Source: an uncultured Acidobacteriota bacterium (lineage in GTDB: Bacteria; Acidobacteriota; Polarisedimenticolia; J045). Taken from it: a stretch of 30,322 nt of DNA. The notes below the pieces were generated by a model, which was not told where the DNA came from, made no database searches, and saw nothing but the letters and a program-made list of their open reading frames with translations. Both the position numbers and the translations under genes were made by a program. Positions 7,677-23,320 of the stretch are shown here, in pieces (position 1 is the first letter of the stretch; every line of letters starts with the position of its first letter). The DNA is taken from the NCBI GenBank assembly GCA_964432135.1, contig CAYSMT010000001.1:7548-37869 (forward strand). The letters are read 5' to 3'.

Positions 7677-7812
7677 CTCGGATCTCCTTTTTTTGTGTCG
7701 CTCTCCTAGCGCCTCTCGCGATGGTCCCACTGGCTCAGCGGAGCAATGCGCGAAGACACCTACGCCCAGAAGATGGATGCCAGCTCGTGCTGAGGCGTTT
7801 CATTCTGCAATC

Positions 7813-7838
7813 GCGCGGGCCAGAGCTCTGGCCCGCGC
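7813..7838. repeat. Perfect 26-bp palindrome GCGCGGGCCAGAGCTCTGGCCCGCGC
   Basis: Self-complementary with no spacer, read directly from the sequence. Intergenic between the YHS gene and the upstream hypothetical gene. Confidence 0.9.
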
Positions 7839-8043
7839 ACGGTCAACTTAGGGATATTGTCAACTTGAGCAGGAATGGAGCCCCGGGAGACCCAAGATGT
7901 CGCCGTCAAGAACGGCCAGGAGAGCCCGAGCTGACGATGCGTACTCCCCACGCACCCGGCACGGATACACAAAACACTCATCACAAATCGACCTCACCGT
8001 GAGTCGATGTCCCCGTGCCATCTATTCGTCGCTGCCGTGTGGA

Positions 8044-8976
8044 TTATTCACTCTTGATGCGAATTTTGTAGTCGACCGCATAGATCGTAGACGCGCCAAA
8101 ACGTCGCGTACGCCGTTTGCTGAGTCGCGCGCTGAGCTCGCAGATTTCTCCTTCGGCGATCTTGCATATGGCGGGACGATTGACTCCCCAGAGTCCCGTA
8201 GCGCTGGTGCTCGTCTCGGCGCGCACACCACGGCTTTCGTAGCTTTCGCGACTGTACTCGTTAAGGGGATCCTCAGGATCGGAGTTCACCTCGGAGATCG
8301 CGAAGCCGATAAGAAGCGCATGCTGGCCCTTGGGTACGATTTGCTCGAAGATGATCTCGTCCTTGTCCGGCCGGAAGAAGCTCGCCCGCGCGAGAACCAT
8401 TCCTGGCTCGGATTGGCCCGTGAGGATCGCCCCTTTCGTGGCCACGCTGCGACCATCGAGAACGACCTCGTAGTAGCTAATGCGAAAGCTCGAGCGCAAC
8501 CGGACACGGATAAGCCCTGCGCCTTCCGGCAGCGGCTCCGGGACCGACTGTGACAACGGCGCCAGCGTAGCTGTACGACCTGGAGAAAGCGGCGTAAGAG
8601 CAGGAGCGGGGGCCGGCGACGCCGAGGCCTGAGTCACACCTTCTGCTGCGGCCGCCGAAGGCTCGGCCCGGGTTTTGCTGAGCCGACTCTTCGCTGTGGC
8701 ACTTTCGACCAGAGCCAACAGGACCTGGTCAGATACGCCTTTCTTCTTGAGGACTGCGAGCTCTTGCCCCCCGAGTAGCGGCACCTGTTCCATCTTCTCG
8801 ATCCGCGCGATGATGACGTAGTCCGCGACGCCTCCCTCCACCATCGCAATAACCTCTTTGATGGCCGCTTGCTCAAGGGCCGGCTCATTATTGGCGAAAA
8901 TCGATGCTCCCAGGGTGCACACGATCGCAAAGGCCATCAGCCGCCATGCAAAGAAACGAGTCGTCATCTGGATCAT
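8044..8976 (-). CDS. Secreted hypothetical protein: small helical N-domain, Ala/Pro linker, beta-rich C-domain
   Basis: Signal-like N-terminus (RFFAWRLMAFAIVCTLGASIFA), a repeated GV(A/S)D-x-VI helical motif (EGGVADYVII / KKGVSDQVLL) and a low-complexity ASPAPAP linker. Confidence 0.7.
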   Translation of the reverse strand: MIQMTTRFFAWRLMAFAIVCTLGASIFANNEPALEQAAIKEVIAMVEGGVADYVIIARIEKMEQVPLLGGQELAVLKKKGVSDQVLLALVESATAKSRLSKTRAEPSAAAAEGVTQASASPAPAPALTPLSPGRTATLAPLSQSVPEPLPEGAGLIRVRLRSSFRISYYEVVLDGRSVATKGAILTGQSEPGMVLARASFFRPDKDEIIFEQIVPKGQHALLIGFAISEVNSDPEDPLNEYSRESYESRGVRAETSTSATGLWGVNRPAICKIAEGEICELSARLSKRRTRRFGASTIYAVDYKIRIKSE

Positions 8977-9066
8977 CACGTGCGTCTCTCTTCCTGGCCG
9001 GTGGCCATCCGTCATCCTAACCGAGAACTCCGCAGAGTGTGACGCGAGGGGACAAGGAACACGCCC

Positions 9067-9939
9067 TCACATGCGGCCGTTGAACACCGGAAGGGTGCGA
9101 CCGTCAGACCGATCGGCCAGCTGACCCAGCACAAAGTGCAGGCTGCGCTTGCTGGAAGGGCAGCCTTCCACACAAGCACCGCAGTTCGTGCAGCCTTGAT
9201 AGCCCGTCATGTGGCGCGGATCGAGCTGCCAGCTACAGACCTGGACGCAATTCGCTCCCAACAGCTCTGGCTGGCAGGTCGGCTGACGCCAACTGACCCG
9301 CAAGGTCCACGGGATCCGCAGGAGCACGAGGGTCGAACCCACCGGGCAGAGTGTTCGGCACCAAAAGCGCCGTGGCAGAACGAGCTCAAAGAGCAAAAAG
9401 GCAGCAAGCAAGAGCAGGCTCCCTCCACTGACACCACCAAGGAAGATCAGCTCCAGTGGAAGGGCGCTGATCAGCCGCGGGGCTGAAAGGGTGGCGACGA
9501 GAGGAGTTGAGAGCAGTCCAGAAAGCAACATAACCGCCGCGAGCACGGACCATCTTAGGAAAGAAAGGCGCCCCTGGCGCCGCCCTGAGCGCCGGCGACC
9601 ACGGCCCCGCAGCTTATCGATCAATTCTGAGAGAAGACCCCAAGGACAAACCCAACTGCAGAAGACGGGCCCGAGGACGAGCGCGAGCGCAAAAGGAAGC
9701 AACATGCCGAGGAGCAGCGTACGCGACGCGCTCTGGGAAGCGAGGATCGTCGAGAGACCTGTCGCGGGATCAACGAGGTCGATCGGACCCATCTTGAGGC
9801 TCGCCAGCGTACCGAGCACGCTTTCCTGTCCCCATCGATAGCTCAGGGGCAGCAAGAGGAAAAAGAGCACAAACGCGATCTGACTCGTACGCCGCCAACG
9901 TGTCCAACGGATCTGCCAGGTCCTAGCTCCGAAGGACAC
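9067..9939 (-). CDS. napH: NapH/MauN-family membrane ferredoxin (quinol dehydrogenase subunit)
   Basis: GTG 9939 follows GGAGG and overlaps the napG stop. Several TM helices, two CxxxCP motifs (FCSWVCPWG, WCRTLCPVG) and C-terminal 4Fe-4S motifs (CTNCGACVEGCP). Confidence 0.88.
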   Translation of the reverse strand: MSFGARTWQIRWTRWRRTSQIAFVLFFLLLPLSYRWGQESVLGTLASLKMGPIDLVDPATGLSTILASQSASRTLLLGMLLPFALALVLGPVFCSWVCPWGLLSELIDKLRGRGRRRSGRRQGRLSFLRWSVLAAVMLLSGLLSTPLVATLSAPRLISALPLELIFLGGVSGGSLLLLAAFLLFELVLPRRFWCRTLCPVGSTLVLLRIPWTLRVSWRQPTCQPELLGANCVQVCSWQLDPRHMTGYQGCTNCGACVEGCPSSKRSLHFVLGQLADRSDGRTLPVFNGRM

Positions 9940-10417
9940 GGATCGCCTCCGGCTCAGCCGGGCAAACCTTGACGCAGATCCCACATCCAACGCAGTACTT
10001 CGGGTCTACTCGTGGCTGAAGTAAAAGGTCCTGAATCAGCGCCGTTCCTTGGAAGGGGCAGGCATCGACGCAAGTGCGACAAAGAATCCCGCGAAACGCA
10101 AAGCAGCTCTGCTCATCAACGACCGCCTCGCCCATGTCGACCTTATCTTTGGCCACCGGCTCGAGGGCACCGCTCGGACAAAGCTCTGGGCAGATCATGC
10201 ACAAGTAACAGGGCACATCCCGCGGCTCGAGCACCGGTGTTCCGACAGCAAGGCCATACTTCCAGCTTGCCGACTTGATTGACTGGTAGGGACAGGAGCC
10301 TGTGCAACGCTGACACTTAATGCACAGCTCGAGAAACTCAGCCTCCGGACGCGCTCCCGGAGGGCGCAGCTCCTGACTGAAGAAGGTAGAGAAGAAGGAT
10401 CGACGCGTCGTACCCAT
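9923..10417 (-). CDS. napG: NapG/MauM-family 4x[4Fe-4S] ferredoxin
   Basis: LRPPGA motif followed by CIKCQRCTGSCP, CYLCMICPELCP, C...LCRTCVDACP and CVGCGICVKVCP. Adjacent to napH and napD. Confidence 0.88.
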   Translation of the reverse strand: MGTTRRSFFSTFFSQELRPPGARPEAEFLELCIKCQRCTGSCPYQSIKSASWKYGLAVGTPVLEPRDVPCYLCMICPELCPSGALEPVAKDKVDMGEAVVDEQSCFAFRGILCRTCVDACPFQGTALIQDLLLQPRVDPKYCVGCGICVKVCPAEPEAIRVLRS

Positions 10418-10589
10418 GATCTCGTCGCTGCGCCTCCCGACACCCGAAGGCTTCCGGTGGGCTCGTCACCGGAATCGCCTGATGAATCCGGTAGCTCGCG
10501 AAGGCAAAGATAGATTGCCACCGGCAAATCACACGACAGCAACAAGGCCATCCTGAGAAATACCGGCCTTCCCGCAGCTCGGATAATAC

Positions 10590-10883
10590 CTAGCCGGCGT
10601 CCTCCGCGGCCCGACGGGCGAGACCACCGACCTCCTCCCAAGGAGCCTCGTCAGCGCGTCCCACGAAGGTCGGAAAAACACCGACCAGCTCTTCATCCTC
10701 TTGGATGAGTTGTTCGACGCTCTCGAGCAGCAGCTTACCGCTTGCCGTTGACCACACACCGGCGAGACGGCGATCGCCATCACCACCGACGAGCTCAAGA
10801 CCGTCGATCTTCGCCAAACGAGCAGCGGCTCGGGGTGCCCGCCCCGGGAGAGTCTCAATAACGACCCCGGCAACGACAGGCAC
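10590..10883 (-). CDS. napD: NapD chaperone
   Basis: GTG 10883 follows AGAGGA (MPVVAGVVIETLPG...). About 97 aa with a ferredoxin-like beta-alpha-beta pattern, directly downstream of napA. Confidence 0.8.
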   Translation of the reverse strand: MPVVAGVVIETLPGRAPRAAARLAKIDGLELVGGDGDRRLAGVWSTASGKLLLESVEQLIQEDEELVGVFPTFVGRADEAPWEEVGGLARRAAEDAG

Positions 10884-10942
10884 CCCTTCCTCTGGGAAGG
10901 TTCCGGGCCAGATCCCTGACCCGGAACACTCGACTTCGTTCT

Positions 10943-13201
10943 TCACACCTTCTCCAACTTCACGGCGCAGATCTTGAACTCCGGTTGCTTCGATCCGGGA
11001 TCGTAGGCGTCGATAGTAATCAAGTTACACATCCGCTGGGGATCATGCATGTTGACGAATACTGTCCCTTGTGGGCTGGTATCAGTCACGTTAACGCGGA
11101 AAACCTCGCTGCCACGACGCGAGCTCACACGCAAAGCACCTCCTGCCTTCACACCGAGCTTCGAGGCATCTGCGGGATGAATCTCAATCCGCGCCTCGGC
11201 ATTGGCGTGTGCGAGCTCCTTGCACTTCTGCGTCATCGTACCGGTGTGCCATTGCTCGATCACACGACCGGTCGTGAAGTAGTAGGGATACTCTGCATCC
11301 GGCACCTCAGCCGGATCAGCCATCGGACGAAGCCACACAACAGCCTTCTTGTTCGGCTTGCCATAGAACATCATCCGATGTGGCCAATCCTTCGGAACGA
11401 GGGGGTCAGCACCCTTGACATAGCGTCGCTTCGTTCCAGGATGCCCTTCTTCTGGGCAGGGCCAAAGCACGCCGTGATCCTTGTGCAGGCGGTCGCGTGT
11501 GATGCCCCAGAAAGCGTAGGGCGTATCCTTGGCGATCTGTCGAATCTCGTCCCAGGCGTCGGCCGGAGTCTTGAAGGGGAGGATCTTCTCGAAGCCAGCA
11601 CGGCGGCCAATATCACAGAGAATCTGGAAATCTGTGCGTGCTTCACCGGGGGGCTCGACAGCCTTGGCATCAAGCTGATAACGCCGCTCGGAACAACCGT
11701 AGACACCTTCCTTCTCTGACCACGCCGCTGCGGGAAGCACAACATCCGCAAGCTCCGTGGTACGGGTCGGATAAATATCAGAGACGACAACAAAGGTATC
11801 TTTGCTCTGCATGCCCTTGCGATAGCGGGTCACGTTGGGCAACGATTGTCCTGGGTTCGTGCACATGATGTAGATGCACTTGATCGTGCCTTCGTCCAGG
11901 CCGCGGAACATGTCGACGGCGTTCTTGCCCTTTGTCGATGGCAAGGTCCCGGGCTCGAGGCCCCAGAGTTTCTCCATCGTCGCACGATGAGCCGGCTTAC
12001 CGGACAGCCGTCCATAGGGCAGGAGATGAGACAAACCGCCTTGGTCGCGAACACCGCCGCAGGCATTCGGCTGGCCCGTCAACGAGAAGGTCGTGTTGCC
12101 CGGCGTACCGATCTTCCCTGTGATCAGGTGTAGATTGTGAACTAAGTTATTTGCCCACACTCCGCGGCTGCGCTGATTGAGACCCATACACCACATCGAC
12201 ATCGTCGCCTTGCCTTTGGCACCAAACAGCCGCGCCGCTGCGACGATCTGCTCCTTCGGGCAGCCGGTGATCTTGGCGGCCTTCTCGGGAGAGTAGGCTT
12301 CGAGGAACTTGAGGTAGTCAGCCCAATTTTTGTCGACGGTCTTGACTTGACCGAAGGCGAGCTGACTCTTGATGAACTCGTGATCGATCAGGTTTTCTTT
12401 GATCAGGATATGGGCAAAGGCGTTGAGGATCGCCAGATCGGTTCCTGGCTTGAACTGCAAATGCATGTCCGCGATGCGTGAGGTCGGTGTGCGCCGCGGA
12501 TCGATAACAACGACTTTGACGCCTTTGTCAGCCTGTTTGCGCCGCGCGATACGCTGGAAGAGGATCGGATGCGCCTCGGCGGTGTTCGAGCCCACCAGAA
12601 AGAAGGTGTCGGCGTAATCGATGTCTTCATAACAGCCCATCGGCTCATCTTTGCCGAAGGTCGTTACATAACCACCAACGGCAGAAGCCATACAAAGACG
12701 TGGATTACCTTCAATATTGTTGGTCCGAAAACCCGCGCGGAAGAGCTTGTTCGCGGCGTAGGACTCCTCGGTATAAGCCTGCCCCGAACCGTAGAAGGCC
12801 ACCGAGTCCGGCCCGTGCTTCTTGGCTGAGTCTTTGAATCTCTTGACAATCAGCTTTAATGCCTCGTCCCAAGTCGCCTCTTTGAGCTCGCCCTTCTTGT
12901 TGCGGATCAGCGGCTTGGTGAGACGAGACTCATCGTAGAGGATTTGCGGTAGCAGGAATCCCTTTAAGCAGAGGAATCCATTGTTGTGGTTGTCTTTGTC
13001 ACCCTTGACGGCGATGAGGCGACCGTTCTTGGTGCCCTTGTAAAGACCGCAACCGGTGCCACAGTAGCGGCACACGCCCTTGGTCCACTTCACACTTCCG
13101 TCCGCTACGCTCTGTGCGAGGGTCTCGGTCGGCTTGCCGAGTGCAGCGATAGCCGATGCTGCGGCAGTGGTGAAGAGGAAGTTCCTTCGAGTAACCTTCA
13201 T
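10943..13201 (-). CDS. napA: Periplasmic nitrate reductase catalytic subunit NapA (short, Desulfovibrio-like type)
   Basis: TAT motif TRRNFL, [4Fe-4S] motif CRYCGTGC, Mo-ligand region EGNPRLCMASAVGGYVTTFGKDEPMG, GQPNACGG and C-terminal QPEFKICAV. AAGGAGG RBS before ATG 13201. Confidence 0.96.
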   Translation of the reverse strand: MKVTRRNFLFTTAAASAIAALGKPTETLAQSVADGSVKWTKGVCRYCGTGCGLYKGTKNGRLIAVKGDKDNHNNGFLCLKGFLLPQILYDESRLTKPLIRNKKGELKEATWDEALKLIVKRFKDSAKKHGPDSVAFYGSGQAYTEESYAANKLFRAGFRTNNIEGNPRLCMASAVGGYVTTFGKDEPMGCYEDIDYADTFFLVGSNTAEAHPILFQRIARRKQADKGVKVVVIDPRRTPTSRIADMHLQFKPGTDLAILNAFAHILIKENLIDHEFIKSQLAFGQVKTVDKNWADYLKFLEAYSPEKAAKITGCPKEQIVAAARLFGAKGKATMSMWCMGLNQRSRGVWANNLVHNLHLITGKIGTPGNTTFSLTGQPNACGGVRDQGGLSHLLPYGRLSGKPAHRATMEKLWGLEPGTLPSTKGKNAVDMFRGLDEGTIKCIYIMCTNPGQSLPNVTRYRKGMQSKDTFVVVSDIYPTRTTELADVVLPAAAWSEKEGVYGCSERRYQLDAKAVEPPGEARTDFQILCDIGRRAGFEKILPFKTPADAWDEIRQIAKDTPYAFWGITRDRLHKDHGVLWPCPEEGHPGTKRRYVKGADPLVPKDWPHRMMFYGKPNKKAVVWLRPMADPAEVPDAEYPYYFTTGRVIEQWHTGTMTQKCKELAHANAEARIEIHPADASKLGVKAGGALRVSSRRGSEVFRVNVTDTSPQGTVFVNMHDPQRMCNLITIDAYDPGSKQPEFKICAVKLEKV

Positions 13202-13213
13202 CACTTCCTCCTT

Positions 13214-13588
13214 TCACATCCCATGAGGGGTGAGTGCGTGGGCAGGATGGCAAGTGAAGCAGGTCTTGCCTTTCATCGCGCTTCCGCTCATCGACGCGAG
13301 CTGATCTGCGTGACAGCTCACGCAACGCGCCATGCTCGGCTGAATGGCGAAATCCTCTCCCACCGAACCGTGGCAAACGACGCACTTGACGTTAAACAGG
13401 CCGTGAGAGCTTGAAAACCACTCTTTGAAGATCTCGGGCGTGCCCTTTTCGTGGCAGGCCGCACAGTCCTTCGCCCTGCCCATCCCGACTGGGTGTTCGG
13501 CTTTGGGAGCATCCGCAGCAAACGCAACTCCCAACGCCAGGACACCTGCCAGCAGCACGACTCCCATGGCCAGTCGGTGCAGCTTCAT
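13214..13588 (-). CDS. napM: Small periplasmic tetraheme cytochrome c (NapM-like)
   Basis: GGAGG RBS, signal peptide and four CxxCH motifs (CAACH, CVVCH, CVSCH, CFTCH). Immediately upstream of napA, as in Desulfovibrio napCMADGH. Confidence 0.82.
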   Translation of the reverse strand: MKLHRLAMGVVLLAGVLALGVAFAADAPKAEHPVGMGRAKDCAACHEKGTPEIFKEWFSSSHGLFNVKCVVCHGSVGEDFAIQPSMARCVSCHADQLASMSGSAMKGKTCFTCHPAHALTPHGM

Positions 13589-13679
13589 GTCGTTCCTCCC
13601 TTCGTTGATGCGCAGTGGCACCCCGCCTTCCAGCGTTGGGCGTTCCGCTTGGGAAGCCGGGGTGCGGTTTCGCCCATGC

Positions 13680-15206
13680 TCAGCCGCCGACTTTCACGCC
13701 GCCGAAGCTGTACTTGATGGTCGTACGCAGCTCGTAGGCTGCCTCATCCCACTTGTCGGTACCGTTAACCAGATAGAGCGCGCCATCCCCCGGGCTAAAG
13801 TAACCGGTACGGAAGATCCACAGAAGACCCGGATAGACCTTCCAGTGCAGGCGCATGTCGACCTCCCAGCCGAGATCATCAGAGGTAGAGACCGCGTCGA
13901 GATCGCCAGCTTCGAGCCCGTAGGATCCGCCCGCCTCAGCCCAAGCAAAAATCGGCTCCGTCGCCTGCATCCAGGTTCCGGAAACAAAGTAAGTCAGCTG
14001 CGGGTTGATCTTCCAGGTGTAGTTAGCTTGCACGAGAGTCGTGTTCTCGAACTCTCGGTAGCCACGGGAGGCCGGTGAGCCGAGACCCTGGGGAGTGATT
14101 CCCTCTTCGTCGGGCATCACGGAGTCTTCCCATACCTCGGTCACATAGAAGAAGCCGTTGGTGCGGATGCGGTTGATGTTGCCGTCGCCGCGCAGCGGGT
14201 CGTCGTCACCCGAGCCCATGCCGAAGAGCATGCCGAACTTGCCGGGGCCAGCGGGCACCTTGGCATCAAAATAGAAGTTATAGCCAGAGAGGTCACCGTC
14301 ATTGACGTCAATGATCTGCTTGAGATCGGAGGAGGAGTTCGCGATATCGTCGTCGCCGCCAAGGAAGTCCGCCTCTCCCTTGAGCTCCCACTTCCCGACC
14401 TTGCCATTGAAGGCGAAGCCGAGAGCGTAGGCCTTGGAGACCTGCGGCGTGAAGCGCGCGCGGAAGTATTGCAGACCGTTGGGGATGTAGGAGCGACGCG
14501 AAGCCTTACCCCCATCCACGTAGTAGGCGAGGAAGGGGTTGACGGTCCAGTTTTTCCCCTTGTGAACGTAGTCGAGGGTGTAAAGGGTCGCATCCTCTGT
14601 GGAGAATCCCATGGGGCCGATGGCGCTTTCATCGGAGAGCGAGTCGGCACCTTCGGACATCTTCGCCCAGCCAAAGCTGAAGCGGCCATCGTCCAGGAGC
14701 TTGGTCGCGATGACGCCGTCGTTGTCTTGGTCGAGAACGAGCATGTTACCGAGCTTGTTCTTCATGCGACCAATCTTGAAGTTCCAACCCCAATCGGGAT
14801 GCGTGAAGTCTACATAGGCCCAGTCGATGTGGGTCACGAAGTTCGTGTCCTTGCGGCCGAACAAGGAGGAGAAACCACCCTCGGAGGGGTTGCGGCGGAA
14901 GTTGTCGATGCCCCAGATCGACTGGGCCACATCGCCGCGCACGACCATCTTAATGTTTTCACCGACGCCGAATTGCGCTGTCAAGCGCACCATCTGGATC
15001 GCGTATTCATCTTTGTCCGAAACACCCCCAACAAAAGGAGCGTCCGCACTCTTACCGAAGAAGAAGTTATTCTGGCTGTATCCATTCATGGCATAAAAAC
15101 CAGACAACTTGAACCAAGGCTTGGCTTTACCATCGTCGCCGGCGAAGCTCGGCATGACCATCGCAGCGAGCACACAGACCACGATGGCAAGTTTGATCTT
15201 GCTCAT
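13680..15206 (-). CDS. Outer-membrane beta-barrel protein (porin / alginate-export-like)
   Basis: ATG 15206 follows AAGGGG. Signal peptide ending ...MPSFA. Rich in Gly, aromatic residues and Asp with alternating beta-strand patterns, no Cys in the mature part, and terminal strand YELRTTIKYSF followed by a short tail. Confidence 0.75.
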   Translation of the reverse strand: MSKIKLAIVVCVLAAMVMPSFAGDDGKAKPWFKLSGFYAMNGYSQNNFFFGKSADAPFVGGVSDKDEYAIQMVRLTAQFGVGENIKMVVRGDVAQSIWGIDNFRRNPSEGGFSSLFGRKDTNFVTHIDWAYVDFTHPDWGWNFKIGRMKNKLGNMLVLDQDNDGVIATKLLDDGRFSFGWAKMSEGADSLSDESAIGPMGFSTEDATLYTLDYVHKGKNWTVNPFLAYYVDGGKASRRSYIPNGLQYFRARFTPQVSKAYALGFAFNGKVGKWELKGEADFLGGDDDIANSSSDLKQIIDVNDGDLSGYNFYFDAKVPAGPGKFGMLFGMGSGDDDPLRGDGNINRIRTNGFFYVTEVWEDSVMPDEEGITPQGLGSPASRGYREFENTTLVQANYTWKINPQLTYFVSGTWMQATEPIFAWAEAGGSYGLEAGDLDAVSTSDDLGWEVDMRLHWKVYPGLLWIFRTGYFSPGDGALYLVNGTDKWDEAAYELRTTIKYSFGGVKVGG

Positions 15207-15310
15207 TGGCGTCCCCTTATTGCCCCCTGCGAATCCCGCCGGGGCGGATACGAGTTGAACGAGCCGGCCGCGCGTTTCCGTAGGCCGGCCCGATCGTCTG
15301 ACGGCTATGG

Positions 15311-16666
15311 CTAGTGGATCTCCTGGTTGTAGCGCTTTTTGTAGAACTCGAGATTGGCCTTGCGCTGTTCCTCGGTCATGCCCTTGAGCCACTGGTGTTC
15401 TTTCATCTGCTTGGCTTTGCGGGTCACCCCGGGCTTGAGCTTCTCGGCCATCGGAAGGAACTTCATATAGAAGTGTTGCGCCACCTCGTAGAACCCGTGC
15501 CACTGGGTGTAGTCCGGCCCCATCATTGACGCACCCATGCGCGCCCGGCGCCCCTCGTGATGCCACAACTCGAAGTACACCCACTCAATAGGCTCATCAA
15601 AGGGCGTCGCAGTGAGTTTTCCGGACTTCTTGAGGTCGTCCATGATGTCGCGGGCAGGAATACCGAACTTGCGGTTGTAATGATCGACTGCGGCGTCATA
15701 CATCGTGTAGAAATTGTCGACCCAGGTCGTTCCGTGACACTCGAGACAGACCTTCTTCATTTTTCCCCTGCGCTCGGCGGAGTTCTCGAGATCTTTCGAA
15801 ACCGGCGGTCGGTTCGTGCGGGAGATGCGGGCTCCGATATCGTGAGTGACCTCCATCGTCGGCGTCGCGGAGACATGACAGGTCGCGCAGGTCGGTGCTG
15901 CGATATAGTCCTCGCCGACGACCCATTTGGTCCGGTCCATGTTCATCTCGTCACGGTGAGAGACGAAGTTGATGCCGTGCTTGGACTCTTCAAAAATCTC
16001 GATCTGCGGGTGATCCGGGCCCATGTGGCACCGACCGCAAGTGTGCGGCTCGCGCACCTGCTCGAGCGCGAAGCTGTGCCGGAGGTGGCAGGCGGTGCAG
16101 GTACCGTTTGATCCATCCGGGTTGATTCTGCCGATACCGGTATTCGGCCAAGTTCCAGCGACGGGCCGGCCGTCCTTGTCGATCTCGACGATCGAGCCAT
16201 GGCACTGGCGACAGCCGAGGTTGGCGGCCGGCGTACCCTCAATGACCTCGCCAAGCAAGTTGTCCATTGAACCGATGAACTGTGCGGCGTTCGCGTGATG
16301 TGATGGGGTGAACTCCTCAAACTGCTTCTGGTGGCATTCCTTACAATCCTGCGGCGACGGGACCTGGCTGACATTGTAGCCCTCGTGCTTCCACAGATCG
16401 GGATCGCCTTCCTTGGCCTCGTGGCAGGACTGGCAGCCGATGCCCTTCTCCGCGTGACGTGAAAGCTCCCACTGGCGACTCCAGGTCACGGCGATGTGCT
16501 TCTCGTCGTGACAGTCGATGCAAGCCTTGGTTGTGGCATCTGCGTAGGCGCGCGCCGCGTTCTCGGGCTTGTGCCGACTCTTTTCAATGAAACCCACGGT
16601 GATGACGGCGGCCAGGAAGGCCAGGGCGAAGATGGCGACGATGAATTTCTTGAACTGGAGGCTCAT
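15311..16666 (-). CDS. Membrane-anchored octaheme cytochrome c of the hydroxylamine oxidoreductase family (epsilon-Hao/reductive-type)
   Basis: GAGGGAGG RBS before ATG 16666 and an N-terminal hydrophobic helix. Eight CxxCH motifs (CIDCH, CQSCH, CKECH, CRQCH, CTACH, CGRCH, CATCH, CLECH). HAO-type CHMGPDHPQ...SKHG and C-terminal GPDYTQWHG. Confidence 0.88.
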   Translation of the reverse strand: MSLQFKKFIVAIFALAFLAAVITVGFIEKSRHKPENAARAYADATTKACIDCHDEKHIAVTWSRQWELSRHAEKGIGCQSCHEAKEGDPDLWKHEGYNVSQVPSPQDCKECHQKQFEEFTPSHHANAAQFIGSMDNLLGEVIEGTPAANLGCRQCHGSIVEIDKDGRPVAGTWPNTGIGRINPDGSNGTCTACHLRHSFALEQVREPHTCGRCHMGPDHPQIEIFEESKHGINFVSHRDEMNMDRTKWVVGEDYIAAPTCATCHVSATPTMEVTHDIGARISRTNRPPVSKDLENSAERRGKMKKVCLECHGTTWVDNFYTMYDAAVDHYNRKFGIPARDIMDDLKKSGKLTATPFDEPIEWVYFELWHHEGRRARMGASMMGPDYTQWHGFYEVAQHFYMKFLPMAEKLKPGVTRKAKQMKEHQWLKGMTEEQRKANLEFYKKRYNQEIH

Positions 16667-16742
16667 GACCCCTCCCTCAGCGTAAGAGCGTGATCGAAGT
16701 GTAAAAGTGCTTGGCAACAATGCGACGACCTGCCACGACCCG

Positions 16743-17855
16743 TCATGACAGCGCCTCCCAGACGAAGAAGACAAGGACGACAACAATGGCGAGGCTGCCG
16801 ATGACGGTGCCGAGTTCGCTCTTCGGATTGCGACGCCGGAAGAGCGCGTCGATGAAGGGCCAGAAGACGAAGGCGGCGCCCGCAGCCATCATTCCGGAGA
16901 TCCCAGCCCACAGAGGCACGAGCTTGAGCCACCGGAACATGGGATAGAAGTACCACTCCGGCTTGATATGCAGCGGCGTTTCGTCAGGGTTGGCCGGCAC
17001 GCCCAGGTGCGCCGGGAAGGCGATGGCGAGCACGGCCAGAACCGAAAGCAGGACGAAGCCGACCATCAGCTCGGTGGTGATATGGTCAGGGAAGAAGGCA
17101 AAGTAGCGGTTCGGGTCGAAGCGCTTCTTGCCCTCGCGGTCTTCCTCCACGGTCAGCGGCGTCTGCTGCACCTCCTCGGGAGCATCGAGTTCCATCACGC
17201 CGTGGATCCGTAGCAGAAAGACATGCGCGCCAATGAGAAGCAAGATCAGTGAGGGCATCGCTCCGATGTGGAAGACGAAGAAGCGTGTCAGGGTCGTCGG
17301 GCCAACCTCCTGGCCGCCTCGCATCAGCTTAAGAATCCACTCACCGATGAGCGGCGTCTGGGCCGCAACATTGGTCCCGACGGTCGCCGCCCAGAACGAG
17401 AGCTGATCGTTGATCAGGGCATAGCCCGTGAAGCCGAATCCAAGGGTGACCATCAGCAGGCCCGTGCCGACCATCCAGTTCAGCTCACGCGGCTTGCGGT
17501 ATGCACCGGTAAAGAAAACGCGCATCACATGGAGAACCACAGCGACGACCATCAGGTTGGCCGCCCAGTGATGCACCGAACGAACGAACCAGCCGAAGGG
17601 TACCTGCGTGTTGATGTAGTTGACCGTCTCCCAGGCGCCCTGAGGTGACGGACGGTAGTAGAAAGTCAGCAGGATCCCAGTAACCGCCTGGATGAGCAGC
17701 AGCATCAGCGGCGTACCGCCGAGCGCGTACCACCAGTTCTTCATGTGGTTTGGAATGGGCTCCTTGGAGAGCTCCTCGAACACCTCGATATCGACGGGAA
17801 CTCGGCTTCTTACGAAGCGGAGCCAGGAGGGAATGGTGTGACCGGTCTCCGACAT
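16743..17855 (-). CDS. Cytochrome b of a Rieske/cytb complex (fused cyt b + subunit IV, ~7 TM)
   Basis: Heme-ligand His pairs (VRSVHHW...VLH and FVFH...GAH), WAATVGTN, Qo motif HIKPEWYF and an RKPRELNWMVG motif. GGGAGG RBS before ATG 17855. Confidence 0.93.
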   Translation of the reverse strand: MSETGHTIPSWLRFVRSRVPVDIEVFEELSKEPIPNHMKNWWYALGGTPLMLLLIQAVTGILLTFYYRPSPQGAWETVNYINTQVPFGWFVRSVHHWAANLMVVAVVLHVMRVFFTGAYRKPRELNWMVGTGLLMVTLGFGFTGYALINDQLSFWAATVGTNVAAQTPLIGEWILKLMRGGQEVGPTTLTRFFVFHIGAMPSLILLLIGAHVFLLRIHGVMELDAPEEVQQTPLTVEEDREGKKRFDPNRYFAFFPDHITTELMVGFVLLSVLAVLAIAFPAHLGVPANPDETPLHIKPEWYFYPMFRWLKLVPLWAGISGMMAAGAAFVFWPFIDALFRRRNPKSELGTVIGSLAIVVVLVFFVWEALS

Positions 17856-17857
17856 GC

Positions 17858-18310
17858 TCAGGCCTCCCTGTCTGGCACGGTGGCCCACATGTGGTCGCCT
17901 TCGAGCCGCACCTCATAGCTTGGCAGCGGCTCCGGTGGCGGGCCGGCGATGACCTGCCCCTCGGTGTTGAAACGACCCATGTGGCAGGGGCACAGGAAGT
18001 TGCCGTTGACTTGATCCCACTCGACCCGGCACCCGAGATGTGTGCAGGTCGAGGAAAAGACCCGGACTTGCTCCTCGGAGAGCCGGATGACGATCAGGTC
18101 ATTGCCCAATACATTCTTCACGAAACGACTTGCGGCAATGGGTAGCTCGGAGAGCTTGCCGAGCAACACCTCACGAAATGGCTCGGTGCCTCCAGGCACG
18201 ACGTACGACGAGACCTGCCTCGCGAGAATCCCCAGGCCGGGAATCACAGTCACAGCCAGGGCGAGATTGGCGAGGAAATCCCGTCGATCTTTCGACTTGG
18301 GTTCTGGCAT
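17858..18310 (-). CDS. Rieske [2Fe-2S] subunit
   Basis: TAT motif DRRDFL, box I CTHLGC, box II CPCHMGRF and GPPPEPL. Confidence 0.93.
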   Translation of the reverse strand: MPEPKSKDRRDFLANLALAVTVIPGLGILARQVSSYVVPGGTEPFREVLLGKLSELPIAASRFVKNVLGNDLIVIRLSEEQVRVFSSTCTHLGCRVEWDQVNGNFLCPCHMGRFNTEGQVIAGPPPEPLPSYEVRLEGDHMWATVPDREA

Positions 18311-18342
18311 ACACGCACCTCTCTCTCAGTGGCCGCAACAAT

Positions 18343-18359
18343 ATGCAAGTGCTATTCCG
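18343..18359 (-). promoter_or_regulatory. Candidate sigma-54 (-24/-12) promoter of the Rieske-cytb-HAO-nap operon
   Basis: Minus strand reads CGGAATAGCACTTGCAT (GG-N10-GC, TTGCAT at -12). It would put transcription start about 23 nt before the Rieske ATG. A sigma-54 activator gene is adjacent. Confidence 0.55.
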
Positions 18360-18471
18360 GAAGGAGTGTGCCAGTTTGAAACACAAGACAACACTAGGCT
18401 TAGCTTGCAGAGCGACCAAGGGTCTTATCTAAACCAGCAAGCGAATGCCGATTTCATGGTGGGAAGACGAT

Positions 18472-18501
18472 CCAAAGAGGGCTTCACCCTGATTTCTTTG
18501 G
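18472..18501. promoter_or_regulatory. Inverted repeat CCAAAGA-N16-TCTTTGG, candidate enhancer-binding site or terminator of the regulator gene
   Basis: The dyad lies about 110-140 bp upstream of the putative sigma-54 site, a typical distance for an upstream activator sequence. Confidence 0.3.
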
Positions 18502-18534
18502 GTTTACGGTCGGCACTCGGATGCCGATCGCCCG

Positions 18535-19908
18535 TCAGCGGGATGAGTCGGTCATAGGTTCCGCTCGCGAGCGTCCGATCCCATGCTTGTGCATCAGGTT
18601 ATAGAGCTGGCGCGAGGAGATGCCGCTGCGGCGGGAGACCTCGCTCAGTTTGCCGCCACAAGCCGCCAGCGCCTGACGCAGGTAGGCTGCCTCAAACGCG
18701 TCGATGATGCGCTGTTTTTCCGCCTGGAAGTTGGGCAGTGGAGCCTCCTGTTCCGGTTCGTCGACGAGACGCAAAATCCCATCGCGACAGAAGACGACCA
18801 AACGCTCCAGTGCGTTCTCTAGCTCACGTACGTTACCGGGCCAGTCTCGTCTCTCGATCCAGGCAAAAACCCGTGGATCAATCTCGCGGATCGTCCGATT
18901 GTGGCGCTCCGCGTGACGCGGAAGCAGGTGCTCGAGCAGAGCCCTGAGGTCTCCGCGCCGTTCACGCAGAGGCGGCAAGTGAATCGGCACGACGTTGAGA
19001 CGATAGTAGAGATCTTCACGGAACTCCCCGCGCTCGACGTCGAGCTTCAGGTCGTGATGAGTAGCCGCAATGAAACGCACATCGACGGCGCGGGGTTCAT
19101 CGCTTCCAAGGGGGGTCACCCTCCCCTCCTCCAGAAAACGCAGCAACTTCGGCTGAATCTGAAGTGGAAGATCGCCGATCTCATCGAGCAGCAAGGTGCC
19201 GCGATCAGCGCTGACGAGCTTGCCGTCGCGATCACGCTCTGCGCCTGTGTAGGCACCGCGAACATGACCAAAGAGCTCGGCCTCGATCAACGTTTCCGGG
19301 ATCGCGGAGCAGTTGACAGCAACAAAGCGCTCCTTCGCCCGAGGGGAAGCCCTGTGTATCGCCCTGGCGACGAGTTCCTTGCCGGTCCCCGTCTCGCCGA
19401 GCAACAAGATCGTGACGGGCGTCTCGGCCACATCAGCGATCGTTTCACGCACAGCCTGCATCGCTTCCGAATCGCCGACGAGCTCGGTGGCCGCAGCTTC
19501 GAGACAGTGGCGCCGCATCTCTCTCTGGAAATTCGAGGCGTCCAGAGCCAGGGCGAGAGTGCGGAGAAGCTCGCCCTCGTCCAAGGGACGTGCCAAGTAG
19601 GTCGTCGCACCCAGACGCATGGCCTCGACCGCCCGGCGTTCGTCACTGTGAGTCGCGACCAGCACCACGGGAAGGTCCGGGACGCGCCGCTTGGCATAGC
19701 GCAGAAGGTCGAGCCCGCTCAGGGCACCTCGCAGATCCTGCTCGGTGATCAGGAGGTCGGGCCTGGATTCGGCAATCGAGGACAAAGCCGCTGGAGCATC
19801 GAAGAAACAGTGAACGTCGTATCCGGCGCGGGCGAGCATGGCAGCAACCTGCCGGCCCGCACTCGGGTCCGGGTCAACGATCAGGATCTGACGCTGTCGC
19901 TCGCTCAT
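18535..19908 (-). CDS. Sigma-54-dependent enhancer-binding protein (NtrC-like architecture) with atypical receiver domain
   Basis: Walker A GETGTGKE, GAYTGA loop, Walker B LLLDEIG, FREDLYYRL and a C-terminal HTH. The N-terminal domain has a REC fold but degenerate active-site residues. Confidence 0.92.
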   Translation of the reverse strand: MSERQRQILIVDPDPSAGRQVAAMLARAGYDVHCFFDAPAALSSIAESRPDLLITEQDLRGALSGLDLLRYAKRRVPDLPVVLVATHSDERRAVEAMRLGATTYLARPLDEGELLRTLALALDASNFQREMRRHCLEAAATELVGDSEAMQAVRETIADVAETPVTILLLGETGTGKELVARAIHRASPRAKERFVAVNCSAIPETLIEAELFGHVRGAYTGAERDRDGKLVSADRGTLLLDEIGDLPLQIQPKLLRFLEEGRVTPLGSDEPRAVDVRFIAATHHDLKLDVERGEFREDLYYRLNVVPIHLPPLRERRGDLRALLEHLLPRHAERHNRTIREIDPRVFAWIERRDWPGNVRELENALERLVVFCRDGILRLVDEPEQEAPLPNFQAEKQRIIDAFEAAYLRQALAACGGKLSEVSRRSGISSRQLYNLMHKHGIGRSRAEPMTDSSR

Positions 19909-19956
19909 GGGGCCGTCGAGTCCTATGGAAGTTGGGCGCTCGCGTAGTATACGGGG

Positions 19957-21168
19957 ATGAGAGAGCAGCAAGGTTATCGAGTTCGGAAGAAGGCCATGCG
20001 CTTATCGCACGCCGATGTCAACGACGCCGAAACCACAGCATGCATGCTGCGCTGGTATGAGGCGTTCAGGCGCCCCCTTCCCTTCCGTTCGAACCGAGCC
20101 CCATATGCGATCTGGATCGCCGAGATCATGGCGCAGCAGACGACGATGCGTGCTGTCGTGCCCTATTGGCAGCGCTTCCTCGCCACCTTTCCTGATATTG
20201 AATCTCTCGCGCGAGCAGATATCGACCAAGTCCTCGCGCTGTGGTCAGGTCTCGGCTACTACCGCCGAGCTCGCCAACTACACCGGGCCGCACAAACGAT
20301 CGTCAACGAGCTGGCAGGGCGCTTTCCAGAAACTCTCGAACAGCTCCGAACCCTTCCAGGTGTGGGACCCTACACGGCGGCCGCGATCGCTTCGATCTGT
20401 TTCGGCCTTCCCACGCCGGTCGTCGACGGCAACGTCATCCGTGTACTCACTCGTTTTGCCGGGATCGAAGGGGATCCGAAGCGCGTGCGCGTTCGGCGCC
20501 AGATCGAGGAACGCGCACGTGACCTGATCGACCCCACGAGGCCCGGCGAGTTCAACCAAGCGCTGATGGAACTCGGCGCTCTCGTCTGCCGGCGGCACAA
20601 TCCCCGTTGCGACGCGTGCCCGCTGGCGGGGGGCTGCCGGGCTTTGGCGATGGGCGATCCGGTACGCTTTCCACAAACAGTGCCCTCGCGCCCGAGCGTG
20701 GCCCTGGTCACGGGCTACGCGCTCATTGTCGACACAAACGGGGCCGTACTCCTACACCGTATCCCGCCGGGTGAGTTCAACGCGGGTTTGTGGGAGCTTC
20801 CGGGGGCCGTGCTCATCCGAAAACAATCCGCGGACAACGACAAACGCCGAGAATCGTTTTCCGGGCGAGATATTTCCCCCTCCCTTGCGCATGCGCTCGA
20901 AAAAGCCCTCGCCACCTCGTTGGAGATCGAGGCGCGTGTTGGCCCGCTGCTGCTGCGTGCACGCCACACCATCACCCATCATCGAATCCTTGGCCTGATA
21001 TGCGAGGCCGTACTGACCTCTTCTCTTCACCCGTCGAGCGCCTTGGAATACTTCAAGCTTGAATCACTCGAAGCCATTGCATTGACGAGCCTCACCCGAC
21101 GAGCCCTGCGCGAATGGACTCGTAGGAGAAGTCAGGAGGCTTCTGCGACCATGCGAACACGGCCATGA
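19957..21168 (+). CDS. mutY: A/G-specific adenine DNA glycosylase
   Basis: EIMAQQT, WSGLGYYRRA, HhH LPGVGPYTAAA, VVDGNVIRV, FNQALMELGA, [4Fe-4S] motif CRRHNPRCDACPLAGGC and a NUDIX-like C-terminus. Start uncertain. Confidence 0.93.
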   Translation: MREQQGYRVRKKAMRLSHADVNDAETTACMLRWYEAFRRPLPFRSNRAPYAIWIAEIMAQQTTMRAVVPYWQRFLATFPDIESLARADIDQVLALWSGLGYYRRARQLHRAAQTIVNELAGRFPETLEQLRTLPGVGPYTAAAIASICFGLPTPVVDGNVIRVLTRFAGIEGDPKRVRVRRQIEERARDLIDPTRPGEFNQALMELGALVCRRHNPRCDACPLAGGCRALAMGDPVRFPQTVPSRPSVALVTGYALIVDTNGAVLLHRIPPGEFNAGLWELPGAVLIRKQSADNDKRRESFSGRDISPSLAHALEKALATSLEIEARVGPLLLRARHTITHHRILGLICEAVLTSSLHPSSALEYFKLESLEAIALTSLTRRALREWTRRRSQEASATMRTRP

Positions 21169-21488
21169 AAGGTAGCCCCGGGATCAACGACGAGAGTGGG
21201 GGCGTGGAGGATCATCTCGCCGCTGAAGACGGCTCCGGGGAGAAGGTGGACTTCGCGAACAACCTCGACACGACCCTCGACGCGTCCATAAACCGTCAAC
21301 ACCTGCACGGAGAGTTTGCCCGAGATGCGAGCTCTCTCACCGACGATCAGGGTGTCACCGGCGACGCTGCCTCCCGTGAGCTGGCCATCGACGCGCAAGC
21401 AACCTTCGAAGCGAATCGAGCCGCCTTCGACGCGCATCTCCTCGCCCATCCAGGCGGTGATCTCTTCTTTCTGTTGACTGCGCCGCAT
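21132..21488 (-). CDS. Bactofilin (polymer-forming cytoskeletal protein)
   Basis: Beta-helix repeats (LRVDGQLTG, LIVGERARISG, VYGRVEGRV, VFSGEM, GATFHGRVRM). The start overlaps the parB stop, and the 3' end overlaps convergent mutY by 37 bp. Confidence 0.88.
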   Translation of the reverse strand: MRRSQQKEEITAWMGEEMRVEGGSIRFEGCLRVDGQLTGGSVAGDTLIVGERARISGKLSVQVLTVYGRVEGRVEVVREVHLLPGAVFSGEMILHAPTLVVDPGATFHGRVRMVAEAS

Positions 21489-22408
21489 CAGCTACTCGTA
21501 CCCTCGAGGCCCAACAGCAGGCGGTAGAGCCGATCGAGATCGTCATCTCCCGCGAAGCGAATCTCGATCCAGCCGCGTTGACCACGTCGACGCTTGATGG
21601 CAACCCGTGCGCCGAGCGCCCGAGAGAGCGATTCCTCCGCAGCGAGGACATTGGGGTCCCTGCGCTTTGAGGGGGCGAAATCTACCGGAAGGACAGCGTC
21701 TGGCTCAGCGAGCCGCCGCACCTTCTCCTCCACGCGGCGAACAGACCAGGCACCCTCCACAGCCTGATTCGCGAGGCGAAGCTGCTGCTGCGCATCATCC
21801 AGACCGGCAAGGGCGCGACCGTGCCCCATATTCAGATGCCCTTCAGCGATCAGATCCTGAACCTCCTCGGGCAGGTCGAGCAGGCGCAAATAGTTCGTGA
21901 CACTGCTGCGGGGCATACCGACTCTTGAGGCGACCTCCGCCTGGGTCAATCGAAAGCGCCTCACCAGGGCGCGAAACGCCTGGGCCGTCTCTAGCGCGCC
22001 GAGGTCGTCGCGCTGAAGATTTTCGATCAACGCGAACTCGAGCATACGTTCGTCGGCGAGTTCGCGAACGATAGCGGGCACTGTTGCGAGCCCGGCGAGG
22101 CGCGCCGCACGCAGGCGCCTCTCACCAGCAATGAGAGTGTAGCCGCCGTCTTTCTCCTGACGCAGGAGGAGCGGCTGCAAGATGCCACTGGAGCGAATCG
22201 AAGCAGCGAGGGCGTCGATTTCCACCGGGTCGAAGTGCGTGCGGGGCTGGTGTGGATTGGGTTTGATCTGATCGAGGGCTATTTCTGCCGGGGTCCCCGC
22301 AGAAGGGGACCCGCCCTCTCGACCGAGCAAGGCGTCGCTATCGCTAAACTCGGGAATCAGACTGTCAAGGCCCTTGCCCAGAGCCCTACGCTTCGCTTCG
22401 CCCTTCAC
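21488..22408 (-). CDS. parB: Chromosome partitioning protein ParB/Spo0J
   Basis: [15 protein letters not shown]-terminus, PNPHQPR, CTP-binding [17 protein letters not shown] and an HTH ([23 protein letters not shown]). Likely GTG start at 22408. Confidence 0.95.
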
Positions 22409-23162: not shown

Positions 23163-23224
23163 GGGGAAGTCCTACCGGAGTGAAAGCGCGAGATTAGCAC
23201 ATGGCGCGTCCTGCGACCCGGCTT

Positions 23225-23320
23225 GATGAATTGCATAAGGTCAATTCTGAATTAAAACGAAAGTAAAACGAATACTGTATAAAACTTAACATATTGTATT
23301 CAAACGTGTTAACACTCATC
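23225..23320. promoter_or_regulatory. AT-rich segment in the parA/mnmG divergent intergenic region
   Basis: Markedly AT-rich compared with the rest of the window. TAAAAC occurs at 23253, 23264 and 23280, and a GTGTTAACAC palindrome at 23306-23315. Confidence 0.5.

Follow-up and report, generated by a model that had tools for sequence, protein, structure and literature searches.

The closest described counterpart of the gene cluster reported here is the nap-Rieske/cytochrome b-epsilonHao locus of Caldithrix abyssi (Cabys_2564-2556), an organism that ammonifies nitrate and has no NrfA (Kublanov et al. 2017; PMC5317091). The cluster in question consists of nine co-oriented genes on the minus strand, at positions 9067-18310 of a 30,322-nt stretch of DNA from an uncultured Acidobacteriota bacterium (contig CAYSMT010000001.1, positions 7,548 to 37,869; this whole stretch is hereafter called the window). 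In order, the genes encode a Rieske protein, a cytochrome b, an octaheme cytochrome c (OCC), an outer-membrane beta-barrel and the periplasmic nitrate reductase proteins NapM, NapA, NapD, NapG and NapH. Like the window, the C. abyssi locus encodes NapM, NapA, NapD, NapG, NapH, a Rieske protein, a cytochrome b and an octaheme cytochrome (cross-link-free in C. abyssi), and is devoid of NapB, NapC and NrfA. The published hypothesis is also the same, namely that the Rieske/cytochrome b pair oxidises quinol and donates electrons to NapM and/or the octaheme cytochrome, maybe in an electrogenic manner (PMC5317091). The C. abyssi type differs from the window in that nap comes first and the Rieske/cytochrome b-OCC genes last, in its longer octaheme protein (535 amino acids), which is only 38% identical, and in belonging to another phylum; moreover, the sigma-54-dependent regulator, its probable binding sites and the promoter region found in the window have not been described for the C. 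abyssi locus.

The three-gene unit made of a Rieske protein, a cytochrome b and an octaheme cytochrome has been on record from 2013 onwards for Nitrospina, Kuenenia, Methylomirabilis and Nitrospira (PMC3578206); that of Nitrospira moscoviensis and N. japonica, Nitrospina gracilis, Kuenenia and Methylomirabilis was proposed to act as a quinol-linked periplasmic nitrite-to-ammonium reductase (PMC3578206, PMC6311188, PMC6606698). The ONR-type genes of Nitrospira are co-expressed with the Rieske/cytochrome b genes when nitrite is the sole nitrogen source and are off with ammonium in N. japonica (PMC6606698, PMC6311188). The window carries the same unit, and the Nitrospira OCC (locus L042) is 51-56% identical to that of the window and shares its N-terminal anchor; unlike the window, the trio of nitrite oxidisers lies among nitrogen-assimilation genes, without nap or a channel gene, and its proposed role is assimilatory. 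The initial annotation of the window, prepared from the DNA letters alone, treated the exact combination as one not known to have been characterised. Both the gene set and the hypothesis had in fact been published for C. abyssi (PMC5317091), and the trio had been described as well (PMC3578206, PMC6311188, PMC6606698). The central concept is already in the literature, and Rieske/cytochrome b-octaheme complexes are a kind known from their genes and biochemically uncharacterised.

For the nap part, the napCMADGH cluster of Desulfovibrio desulfuricans provides the comparison: it likewise combines a monomeric NapA with NapM, NapD, NapG and NapH and has no NapB. The window departs from it in having no NapC, in the addition upstream of the channel and the Rieske/cytochrome b-octaheme genes, and in its sigma-54 control. 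In Campylobacter and Wolinella, periplasmic reductases that pump no protons are made electrogenic by electron supply through Rieske/cytochrome b, in the form of a QcrABC complex of the conventional kind, which has a dihaem c subunit and relies on soluble cytochrome c as carrier. Unlike in the window, the dihaem c subunit is encoded elsewhere and no enzyme-bearing octaheme subunit lies in the same operon. These systems, of which that of Campylobacter is an experimental one, serve as precedents for the energetic principle. Qcr-dependent Nap respiration in Campylobacter jejuni and Rieske/cytochrome bc-dependent N2O respiration in Wolinella are cited in PMC6896113.

Set against these systems, the nine genes of the window are best read, we think with somewhat more confidence than doubt, as a sigma-54-regulated respiratory operon of a member of the Thermoanaerobaculia (Acidobacteriota) that unites a nitrate reductase module, a Rieske/cytochrome b-OCC nitrite module and an outer-membrane channel. 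The genes were defined from the list of open reading frames (ORFs) and their translations, followed by Pfam and NCBIfam scans. To follow their distribution, one genome per GTDB species was scanned with OCC and NapA queries and the nine proteins were mapped onto the loci returned. The features on which the argument relies are as follows (UAS, upstream activating sequence).

18535-19971, minus strand: sigma-54-dependent response regulator (Pfam Sigma54_activat, E 2e-69; Response_reg; HTH_8)
18510-18527, no strand assigned: palindrome TCGGCA-N6-TGCCGA, probable UAS site 1, the only zero-mismatch match in the window
18434-18451, no strand assigned: degenerate copy of the palindrome with 2 mismatches, probable UAS site 2
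18344-18373, minus strand: sigma-54-type promoter region, a GG-N10-GC element (GGAATAGCACTTGCA, 18344-18358) overlapping TGGCAC-N5-TTCC (18359-18373)
17858-18310, minus strand: Rieske protein (Pfam Rieske, E 7e-16; CTHLGC; CPCH; Tat motif RRDFL)
16743-17855, minus strand: cytochrome b (Pfam Cytochrome_B, E 2e-50, and Cytochrom_B_C; PEWY)
15311-16666, minus strand: OCC (8 CxxCH motifs; Multi-haem_cyto, E 8e-21)
13680-15206, minus strand: outer-membrane barrel (NCBIfam DESULF_POR1, E 5e-20, below cut-off; 18-strand AlphaFold2 model)
13214-13588, minus strand: NapM (4 CxxCH motifs; Sec signal; position before napA)
10943-13204, minus strand: NapA (900 bits against D. desulfuricans NapA, 2JIO/2NAP)
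10590-10946, minus strand: probable NapD (weak Pfam NapD match, E 7e-4, and position)
9923-10417, minus strand: NapG (NCBIfam NapG, E 1e-35, below cut-off; Fer4 domains)
9067-9990, start uncertain, minus strand: NapH (NCBIfam NapH/MauN, E 2e-30, below cut-off; two Fer4_5 domains)

The order and common orientation given for the nine genes in the initial annotation are borne out, as is its statement that the window holds no napB, napC/nrfH or nrfA: a scan of the ORFs for cytochrome c motifs found heme c motifs in NapM and OCC only, with no NapB, NapC/NrfH or NrfA within the window and no CxxCK motif among all of its ORFs. The description of the junctions as short gaps or overlaps is accurate for most of them (2, 76, 104, 91 and 9 nt in gene order from Rieske to NapA, then a 4-nt overlap of NapA with NapD and an overlap of NapG with NapH) and a little generous for the 172 nt that separate NapD from NapG. 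Likewise, purine-rich ribosome-binding sites precede most of the start codons, where one had been claimed for each gene.

The assignment of the nitrate reductase module is led by NapA. Its full-length alignment with the monomeric NapA of D. desulfuricans (2JIO/2NAP) scores 900 bits at about 60% identity, and it contains the Pfam domains Molybdopterin, Molydop_binding, Fe4S4 and TAT. Its score against the NCBIfam NapA equivalog (720 bits) falls below the cut-off of 904, presumably because these models were built on NapAB-type enzymes, and we assign the protein as the catalytic subunit of a monomeric-type periplasmic nitrate reductase with a predicted Tat signal. NapM, a predicted small periplasmic tetraheme cytochrome c with weak Pfam c3/c7 matches, is encoded 9 nt before napA; this position directly upstream of napA is that of Desulfovibrio-type nap and is kept in all related loci. 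The product of 10590-10946 is a probable NapD chaperone: its own Pfam match is below the gathering score, and its orthologues in Thermoanaerobaculum aquaticum and in a Calditrichota locus match Pfam NapD. NapG is a predicted periplasmic poly-ferredoxin with a Tat motif (RRSFF), multiple Fer4 domains and a MauM/NapG match (E 4e-33, below cut-off), and NapH the predicted iron-sulfur subunit of a membrane quinol dehydrogenase, with CxxCP motifs in its translation and an alternative GTG start at 9939. With its monomeric NapA, its NapM, NapD, NapG and NapH and neither NapB nor NapC, the module has the predicted make-up of Desulfovibrio-type napMADGH. We note that the NapD-NapG spacer (10418-10589) is absent in T. 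aquaticum, where napD and napG overlap; in the window it contains two small hairpins, TTGCCGGTGGCAA, followed by a T-rich run, and CCGGATTCATCAGGCGATTCCGG, and gave no match to an Rfam family.

The Rieske protein and cytochrome b carry the ligand residues, heme sites and Qo motif expected of bc1/b6f-type proteins. In the former, CTHLGC and CPCH lie at residues 89 and 107, and the best NCBIfam matches are to b6f/bc1 Rieske models, below cut-off. The latter, of 370 amino acids, is of the fused b6 plus subunit IV type, with b6-type spacing of its histidine pairs (H95-x13-H109 and H196-x14-H211), PEWY at residue 299 and, among PDB entries, a match of 181 bits with cytochrome b6; the heme-ci cysteine is absent, its position reading YALGG. 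Its best NCBIfam model is ExtP (E 1e-68, below cut-off).

Among structures in the PDB, the OCC is closest to IhOCC of Ignicoccus hospitalis (4QO5; E 4e-46, and 7e-66 with a 17-sequence profile), followed by NeHAO of Nitrosomonas (1e-16) and then the HAO-like proteins of Kuenenia (KsHAO, HAOr) and HDH, down to 1e-7; NrfA appears in the profile search only at E ~4e-4. All eight CxxCH motifs, as well as CHMGPDHPQ, are invariant in the 17 homologues. IhOCC has been placed as a cross-link-free octaheme nitrite reductase, sister to HAO/HDH (PMC9250108). The window protein resembles it in its eight hemes and its membership of the HAO/HDH/IhOCC clade; IhOCC, a nitrite reductase devoid of the P460 cross-link, differs in being archaeal, in being only partly alignable and in reading Asp-Val where the window protein has Asp218-His219, the pair that aligns with Asp267-His268 of NeHAO. 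Alignments of the OCC with HAO in the hidden Markov model searches end at about residue 406 of 546, and the C-terminus aligns with IhOCC only. These matches place the OCC in the IhOCC/Nitrospira 'ONR' branch of the HAO superfamily, closer to it than to true HAO. Membership of the NrfA/ONR group (TvNiR, TaNiR) was considered and rejected, since the CxxCK motif of a lysine-ligated heme is missing; the same absence disposes of an identity as an ONR/TaNiR-type nitrite reductase of the Trichlorobacter kind.

The OCC family is very large and only generically annotated: of 8,000 candidates that were scored, 7,997 protein clusters matched at E <= 1e-10, and the GTDB species genomes hold more than 594 loci, under names such as 'multiheme c-type cytochrome', 'cytochrome C552' and 'hydroxylamine dehydrogenase'. 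In 34 of the 64 loci with enough upstream sequence, from many phyla, the OCC gene directly follows those for the Rieske protein and cytochrome b, so that about half of the loci have this cytochrome wired to a quinol oxidase, and no other cytochrome c accompanies the three proteins in the operon module. All 35 OCCs linked to Rieske/cytochrome b begin with a hydrophobic helix of about 20 residues, flanked at both ends by charged residues and ending at a constant distance of 19-22 residues before heme 1, in an uncleaved-looking signal-anchor pattern. Most stand-alone OCCs, as judged by eye, have a shorter hydrophobic stretch with an Ala-x-Ala-like, cleavable-looking end. Such an anchor is what one would expect if the linked form were the membrane-bound c-subunit of the complex, and we infer from adjacency and anchor together that the OCC behaves as the c-subunit of the Rieske/cytochrome b pair and may be physically associated with it. 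The suggestion in the initial annotation that an HAO-family enzyme takes the place of the c-subunit is upheld in this sense, with the amendment that IhOCC and the Nitrospira 'ONR' are nearer relatives of the enzyme than true HAO is.

The barrel protein has a cleavable signal peptide and a weak match to NCBIfam DESULF_POR1, a Desulfovibrio-type porin model, that spans its whole length. It has no Pfam match of its own at E 0.01; most of its homologues carry PF13372 (Alginate_exp). An AlphaFold2 model built from 50 homologues has 18 strands (pLDDT 77.8, pTM 0.78), and Foldseek returns for it AlgE first (E 8e-18, TM 0.56-0.67), then OprD/Occ channels and MOMP. The model thus points firmly to a substrate-type channel of the AlgE/Alginate_exp kind and not to the sheath of a cytochrome. 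A porin-cytochrome conduit of the MtrAB or Pcc type was considered and set aside, given the 18 strands (against 20-26), the AlgE-like fold and the lack of a lipoprotein cytochrome; it is further disfavoured by relatives in which the barrel accompanies napMADGH where the octaheme is missing. The barrel gene travels with napMADGH in the relatives, and from this strict linkage the channel probably passes nitrate/nitrite through the outer membrane. Residues 349-388 (TNGFFYVTE.WEDS.MPDEEGITPQGLGSPASRGYREFEN) are the most conserved stretch of the family, with many invariant positions, and are modelled at pLDDT 26-39; they may form a pore-lining or plug loop.

At least nine genomes of Thermoanaerobaculia share the full nine-gene order (L081, L138, L093, L094, L095, L096, L097, L099 and L161), the first eight being labelled Thermoanaerobaculum, Thermoanaerobaculia or Acidobacteriota. 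L081 is the closest relative (77-81% identity), L097 is the same contig as L001, and L161, found through its barrel homologue, is the cultured type strain T. aquaticum MP-01. Such recurrence means that the arrangement is neither due to chance nor an artefact of assembly, and disposes of the concern, raised with the initial annotation, that the juxtaposition might be unique to this assembly. Each half of the operon also occurs by itself. The barrel gene and napMADGH are found without Rieske/cytochrome b or OCC in the close relatives L082, L084, L085, L086, L088 and L092, upstream of which lie unrelated genes and no hidden quinol oxidase. Nitrospira (N. moscoviensis among them), Nitrospinaceae, Bacteroidota, Planctomycetota and further groups have the Rieske-cytochrome b-OCC trio without nap. 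It follows that two units, Rieske/cytochrome b-OCC and channel-napMADGH, have been fused in the operon.

The same parts have been joined in other orders as well. A Calditrichota metagenome-assembled genome (L162) has the order channel-NapM-NapA-NapD-NapH-NapG-Rieske-cytochrome b-OCC, with identities to the window proteins of 52% (NapA), 50% (cytochrome b), 44% (channel) and 38% (OCC); the presence of an Alginate_exp channel is a further likeness to the window. The L162 arrangement agrees with that published for C. abyssi. A third order, Rieske-cytochrome b-OCC-NapA followed by a tetraheme cytochrome with a NapB domain, occurs in metagenome-assembled genomes of Planctomycetota (L033, 8478-14608; L072, 7957-13809) and Cloacimonadota (L040, 3730-10883, where the tetraheme gene is followed by an Alginate_exp channel gene). 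With some 1000 bits, the NapA proteins of these three loci pass the cut-off of the NCBIfam equivalog, and the loci contain no NapC, NapG or NapH. Since Rieske/cytochrome b is the only quinol oxidase beside NapA in them, they provide the best comparative evidence that it can supply Nap, and in these organisms the predicted complex likely does so. In a Thermoanaerobaculales contig (L090, 1-1200), genes for a Rieske protein and a cytochrome b, truncated by the end of the contig, are found upstream of channel-napMAD in divergent orientation, on the opposite strand; this may represent yet another arrangement of the same parts.

Control by sigma-54 is suggested by the first gene upstream of the operon, which shares its strand and whose product combines a receiver domain, an AAA+ sigma-54 activator domain and a Fis-type helix-turn-helix; an orthologue of 53-60% identity stands directly upstream of the Rieske gene in every full nine-gene locus. 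The 224-nt spacer between the two genes contains the palindromes and the promoter region. Across the whole window, matches to the palindrome at up to two mismatches are not above chance, so that the case for the second probable UAS site rests on its position and on conservation in the orthologous loci: one or two copies, usually two, precede the Rieske gene in L081, L138, L093-L095, L097 and L099. The palindrome is also found upstream of the channel gene in the nap-only loci L086 and L088, the former of which has TGGCAT-N5-TTGC too. Sigma-54-type elements lie about 35-60 nt before the Rieske ATG, with the TGGCAC hexamer at 18368-18373. The degenerate sigma-54 pattern, counted across the window, is likewise at chance level, and support for the promoter thus comes from conservation: TGGCAC/T-N5-TTGC occurs at the same distance from the Rieske start in L093, L095, L097 and L099, and with ATGC in L094. 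In T. aquaticum (L161, 4334-6738) a PAS histidine kinase precedes the sigma-54 response regulator; in the window, no kinase gene adjoins that of the regulator, and the neighbouring mutY is read in the divergent direction.

Separate promoters for the two parts of the operon, named in the initial annotation as a finding that would tell against a joint module, were looked for by prediction. No sigma-70 promoter is predicted in the part of the window that contains the operon (7800-20200), the intergenic gaps of the operon are free of sigma-54 -24/-12 matches, terminator-like sites are no commoner than in shuffled sequence, and neither Rfam families nor notable inverted repeats were found in the operon region. 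This pattern fits a single regulated transcript from the conserved sigma-54 promoter region.

From these elements the following pathway can be proposed. Nitrate would cross the outer membrane through the 18-strand channel into the periplasm, where its reduction to nitrite by NapA would draw on electrons that NapGH provides, probably through NapM. Quinol would be oxidised at the PEWY-containing Qo site, and its electrons would pass through the Rieske cluster into the octaheme cytochrome, whose five-coordinate heme would reduce nitrite, most likely to ammonium. Were Rieske/cytochrome b to run a Q-cycle, nitrite reduction would be electrogenic, and with spill-over of electrons to NapM so would nitrate reduction. 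The Rieske/cytochrome b-OCC complex is plausible as a quinol:nitrite reductase, and its electrogenic operation with proton translocation is plausible too; spill-over to NapM and NapA is possible in the organism of the window, and is not required there, as NapGH is present. That ammonium is the most likely product of the OCC is argued on three counts: IhOCC is described as a nitrite reductase, the Nitrospira genes show the expression pattern described above, and Caldithrix ammonifies nitrate without an NrfA.

A number of considerations weigh against this pathway. In our own assessment, it is bioenergetically questionable whether a Rieske centre can productively reduce the low-potential hemes of an HAO-type protein. 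The 172-nt NapD-NapG gap with its hairpins could be the site of an internal signal. Further points concern the independence of the two modules, the product of the OCC and the physiology of T. aquaticum.

As to the first, the initial annotation had the Rieske/cytochrome b complex occupying the slot of NapC, and this finds no support: a NapGH quinol dehydrogenase is encoded in the operon itself, and the relatives with channel-napMADGH alone manage without the complex. The modules may, on these grounds, be electrically independent. In that event Nap would be fed by NapGH only, via NapM or directly, and Rieske/cytochrome b-OCC would be a separate, co-regulated, quinol-dependent nitrite reductase of detoxifying or assimilatory function, with no Q-cycle chain feeding both. 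The trio found by itself in Nitrospira, Nitrospina and many others would agree with such a division, all the more so as that of Nitrospira was assigned to assimilatory nitrite reduction (PMC6311188, PMC6606698). Yet the two parts are joined in one operon behind one sigma-54 promoter in at least nine genomes and are linked in three gene orders across four phyla, the NapA of the Planctomycetota and Cloacimonadota loci has no other quinol oxidase alongside, and assimilatory and respiratory roles are compatible. Weighing these points, we consider full independence of the modules unlikely, though far from negligible. The idea that Rieske/cytochrome b feeds Nap is accordingly kept in a restricted form, as not needed in the lineage of the window and better supported in the NapC- and NapGH-free loci L033, L072 and L040.

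With regard to the product, NO is a real alternative to ammonium. A cross-link-free HAO homologue from Kuenenia yields NO, not ammonium, from nitrite (PMC8042395), and the window OCC retains the Asp-His pair of HAO. In the oxidative P460 enzymes HAO and HDH, the catalytic heme is cross-linked to a C-terminal tyrosine from the adjacent subunit. For the region of this tyrosine, phmmer and profile searches of the PDB with the whole OCC and with its C-terminal 108 residues aligned only IhOCC, and Tyr400 is invariant in the family; the OCC may or may not carry such a cross-link. At locus L005 (8616-13678), an OCC of 67% identity is encoded between an upstream Porin_O_P gene (a phosphate-type anion porin) and a downstream quinol-dependent NO reductase made of a NorB cytochrome c-like domain and COX1, which hints that NO is handled beside some members of the family. 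The OCC might on this account reduce nitrite to NO only, as does Kuenenia HAOr, or act as a hydroxylamine or NO reductase, so that the operon would serve partial denitrification or N-oxide detoxification in place of the dissimilatory reduction of nitrate to ammonium (DNRA). We hold this to be distinctly improbable, as no nor, nirK/S or nos genes lie within the window, formation of ammonium is what both the nearest relative of solved structure and the orthologues in Nitrospira have been linked to, and Caldithrix, with a homologous cluster and no NrfA, produces ammonium.

The third point comes from T. aquaticum, a cultured bearer of the identical operon. The paper announcing its genome gives no evidence that it reduces nitrate (PMC4056298), and in a later comparative study its napA operon was noted and nitrate reduction was not observed in growth tests (PMC5900883). 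The tests may have missed the conditions that induce the system; otherwise, it does not support respiratory growth in this organism. T. aquaticum does reduce Fe(III)/Mn(IV) in growth tests (PMC4056298, PMC5900883), and the cluster might be cryptic or serve something other than nitrate and nitrite, the barrel and the two multiheme cytochromes forming a conduit to Fe(III)/Mn(IV) or acting on another oxyanion such as selenite, tellurite or chlorate. The precedent would be the extHIJKLMNOPQS cluster of Geobacter sulfurreducens, which affects selenite/tellurite reduction (PMC5877670) and, like the window, joins a porin-like channel, a Rieske protein (ExtO), a cytochrome b (ExtP, the best NCBIfam model for that of the window) and multiheme cytochromes in one cluster. 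Beta-barrel/cytochrome clusters have also been proposed for metal reduction in relatives of the Thermoanaerobaculia (PMC8528874), and may or may not be the same as the window cluster. Unlike the window, the Geobacter cluster encodes cytochromes of 5, 10, 12 and 4 hemes and a selenoprotein, and has no molybdoenzyme, whereas the NapA of the window shares about 60% identity with a nitrate reductase of known crystal structure. In addition, an 18-strand AlgE/OprD-like barrel is too small for a cytochrome sheath of the MtrB type (26 strands), the barrel accompanies napMADGH where there is no octaheme cytochrome, and NapM and OCC lack lipoprotein or extracellular signatures. That the cluster is cryptic, or functions in metal or other oxyanion reduction, thus strikes us as very improbable.

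The nitrate and nitrite respiratory operon remains the reading that we prefer, and the comparison of loci invites a wider, more tentative proposal, possible in our view and rather doubtful. Rieske/cytochrome b with an anchored OCC could be a widespread proton-motive quinol:nitrite oxidoreductase, acting also as a quinol:nitrate oxidoreductase through NapM or a NapB-like tetraheme cytochrome, that was recruited to NapA at least three times (the three gene orders; Acidobacteriota, Calditrichota, Planctomycetota and Cloacimonadota), each time together with an AlgE-like anion channel; it would then mediate an electrogenic, NrfA-independent DNRA missed by nrfA surveys. Environmental surveys of DNRA potential usually count nrfA, and in some cases onr. 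If nitrite ammonification and the Q-cycle both hold, nitrate ammonification by this route would be more productive in yield than that by NrfH/NrfA, and ammonification would extend to lineages scored as non-ammonifiers, among them the Thermoanaerobaculia, the Calditrichota and some Planctomycetota. In the literature that we examined we did not find the nine-gene order in Thermoanaerobaculia, the NapGH-free architecture of Planctomycetota and Cloacimonadota, the AlgE-like channel as a constant companion, the association of the OCC signal-anchor with Rieske/cytochrome b adjacency, or the sigma-54 regulator, palindrome and promoter of the operon. To the known systems the locus adds T. aquaticum as an organism in culture, a regulatory region that is defined, and a candidate outer-membrane channel for nitrate/nitrite, and so offers a handle on the question of whether Rieske/cytochrome b-octaheme complexes are energy-conserving nitrite reductases.

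The flanks of the operon encode a BNR/sortilin protein, an M3 peptidase, MutY, ParB, MnmG and MnmE, none of them related to nitrogen. An ORF on the minus strand 51 nt downstream of napH (8044-9015) encodes a protein of 323 amino acids that has a hydrophobic segment at its N-terminus and matches no Pfam family; a gene of 47% identity occupies the same position in L081, a match in L138 lies on the opposite strand, and no counterpart was found in the other full loci. The genes for ParB, MnmG (GidA) and MnmE are clustered at 21488-27506; genes of these three kinds often lie near the chromosomal replication origin, and the cumulative GC skew has no turning point inside the window. The AT skew stands out in the window at two places, reaching +0.35 at 9001-10000, where napH and the last part of napG lie, and -0.26 and -0.17 at 28001-30000, near the right end of the window.

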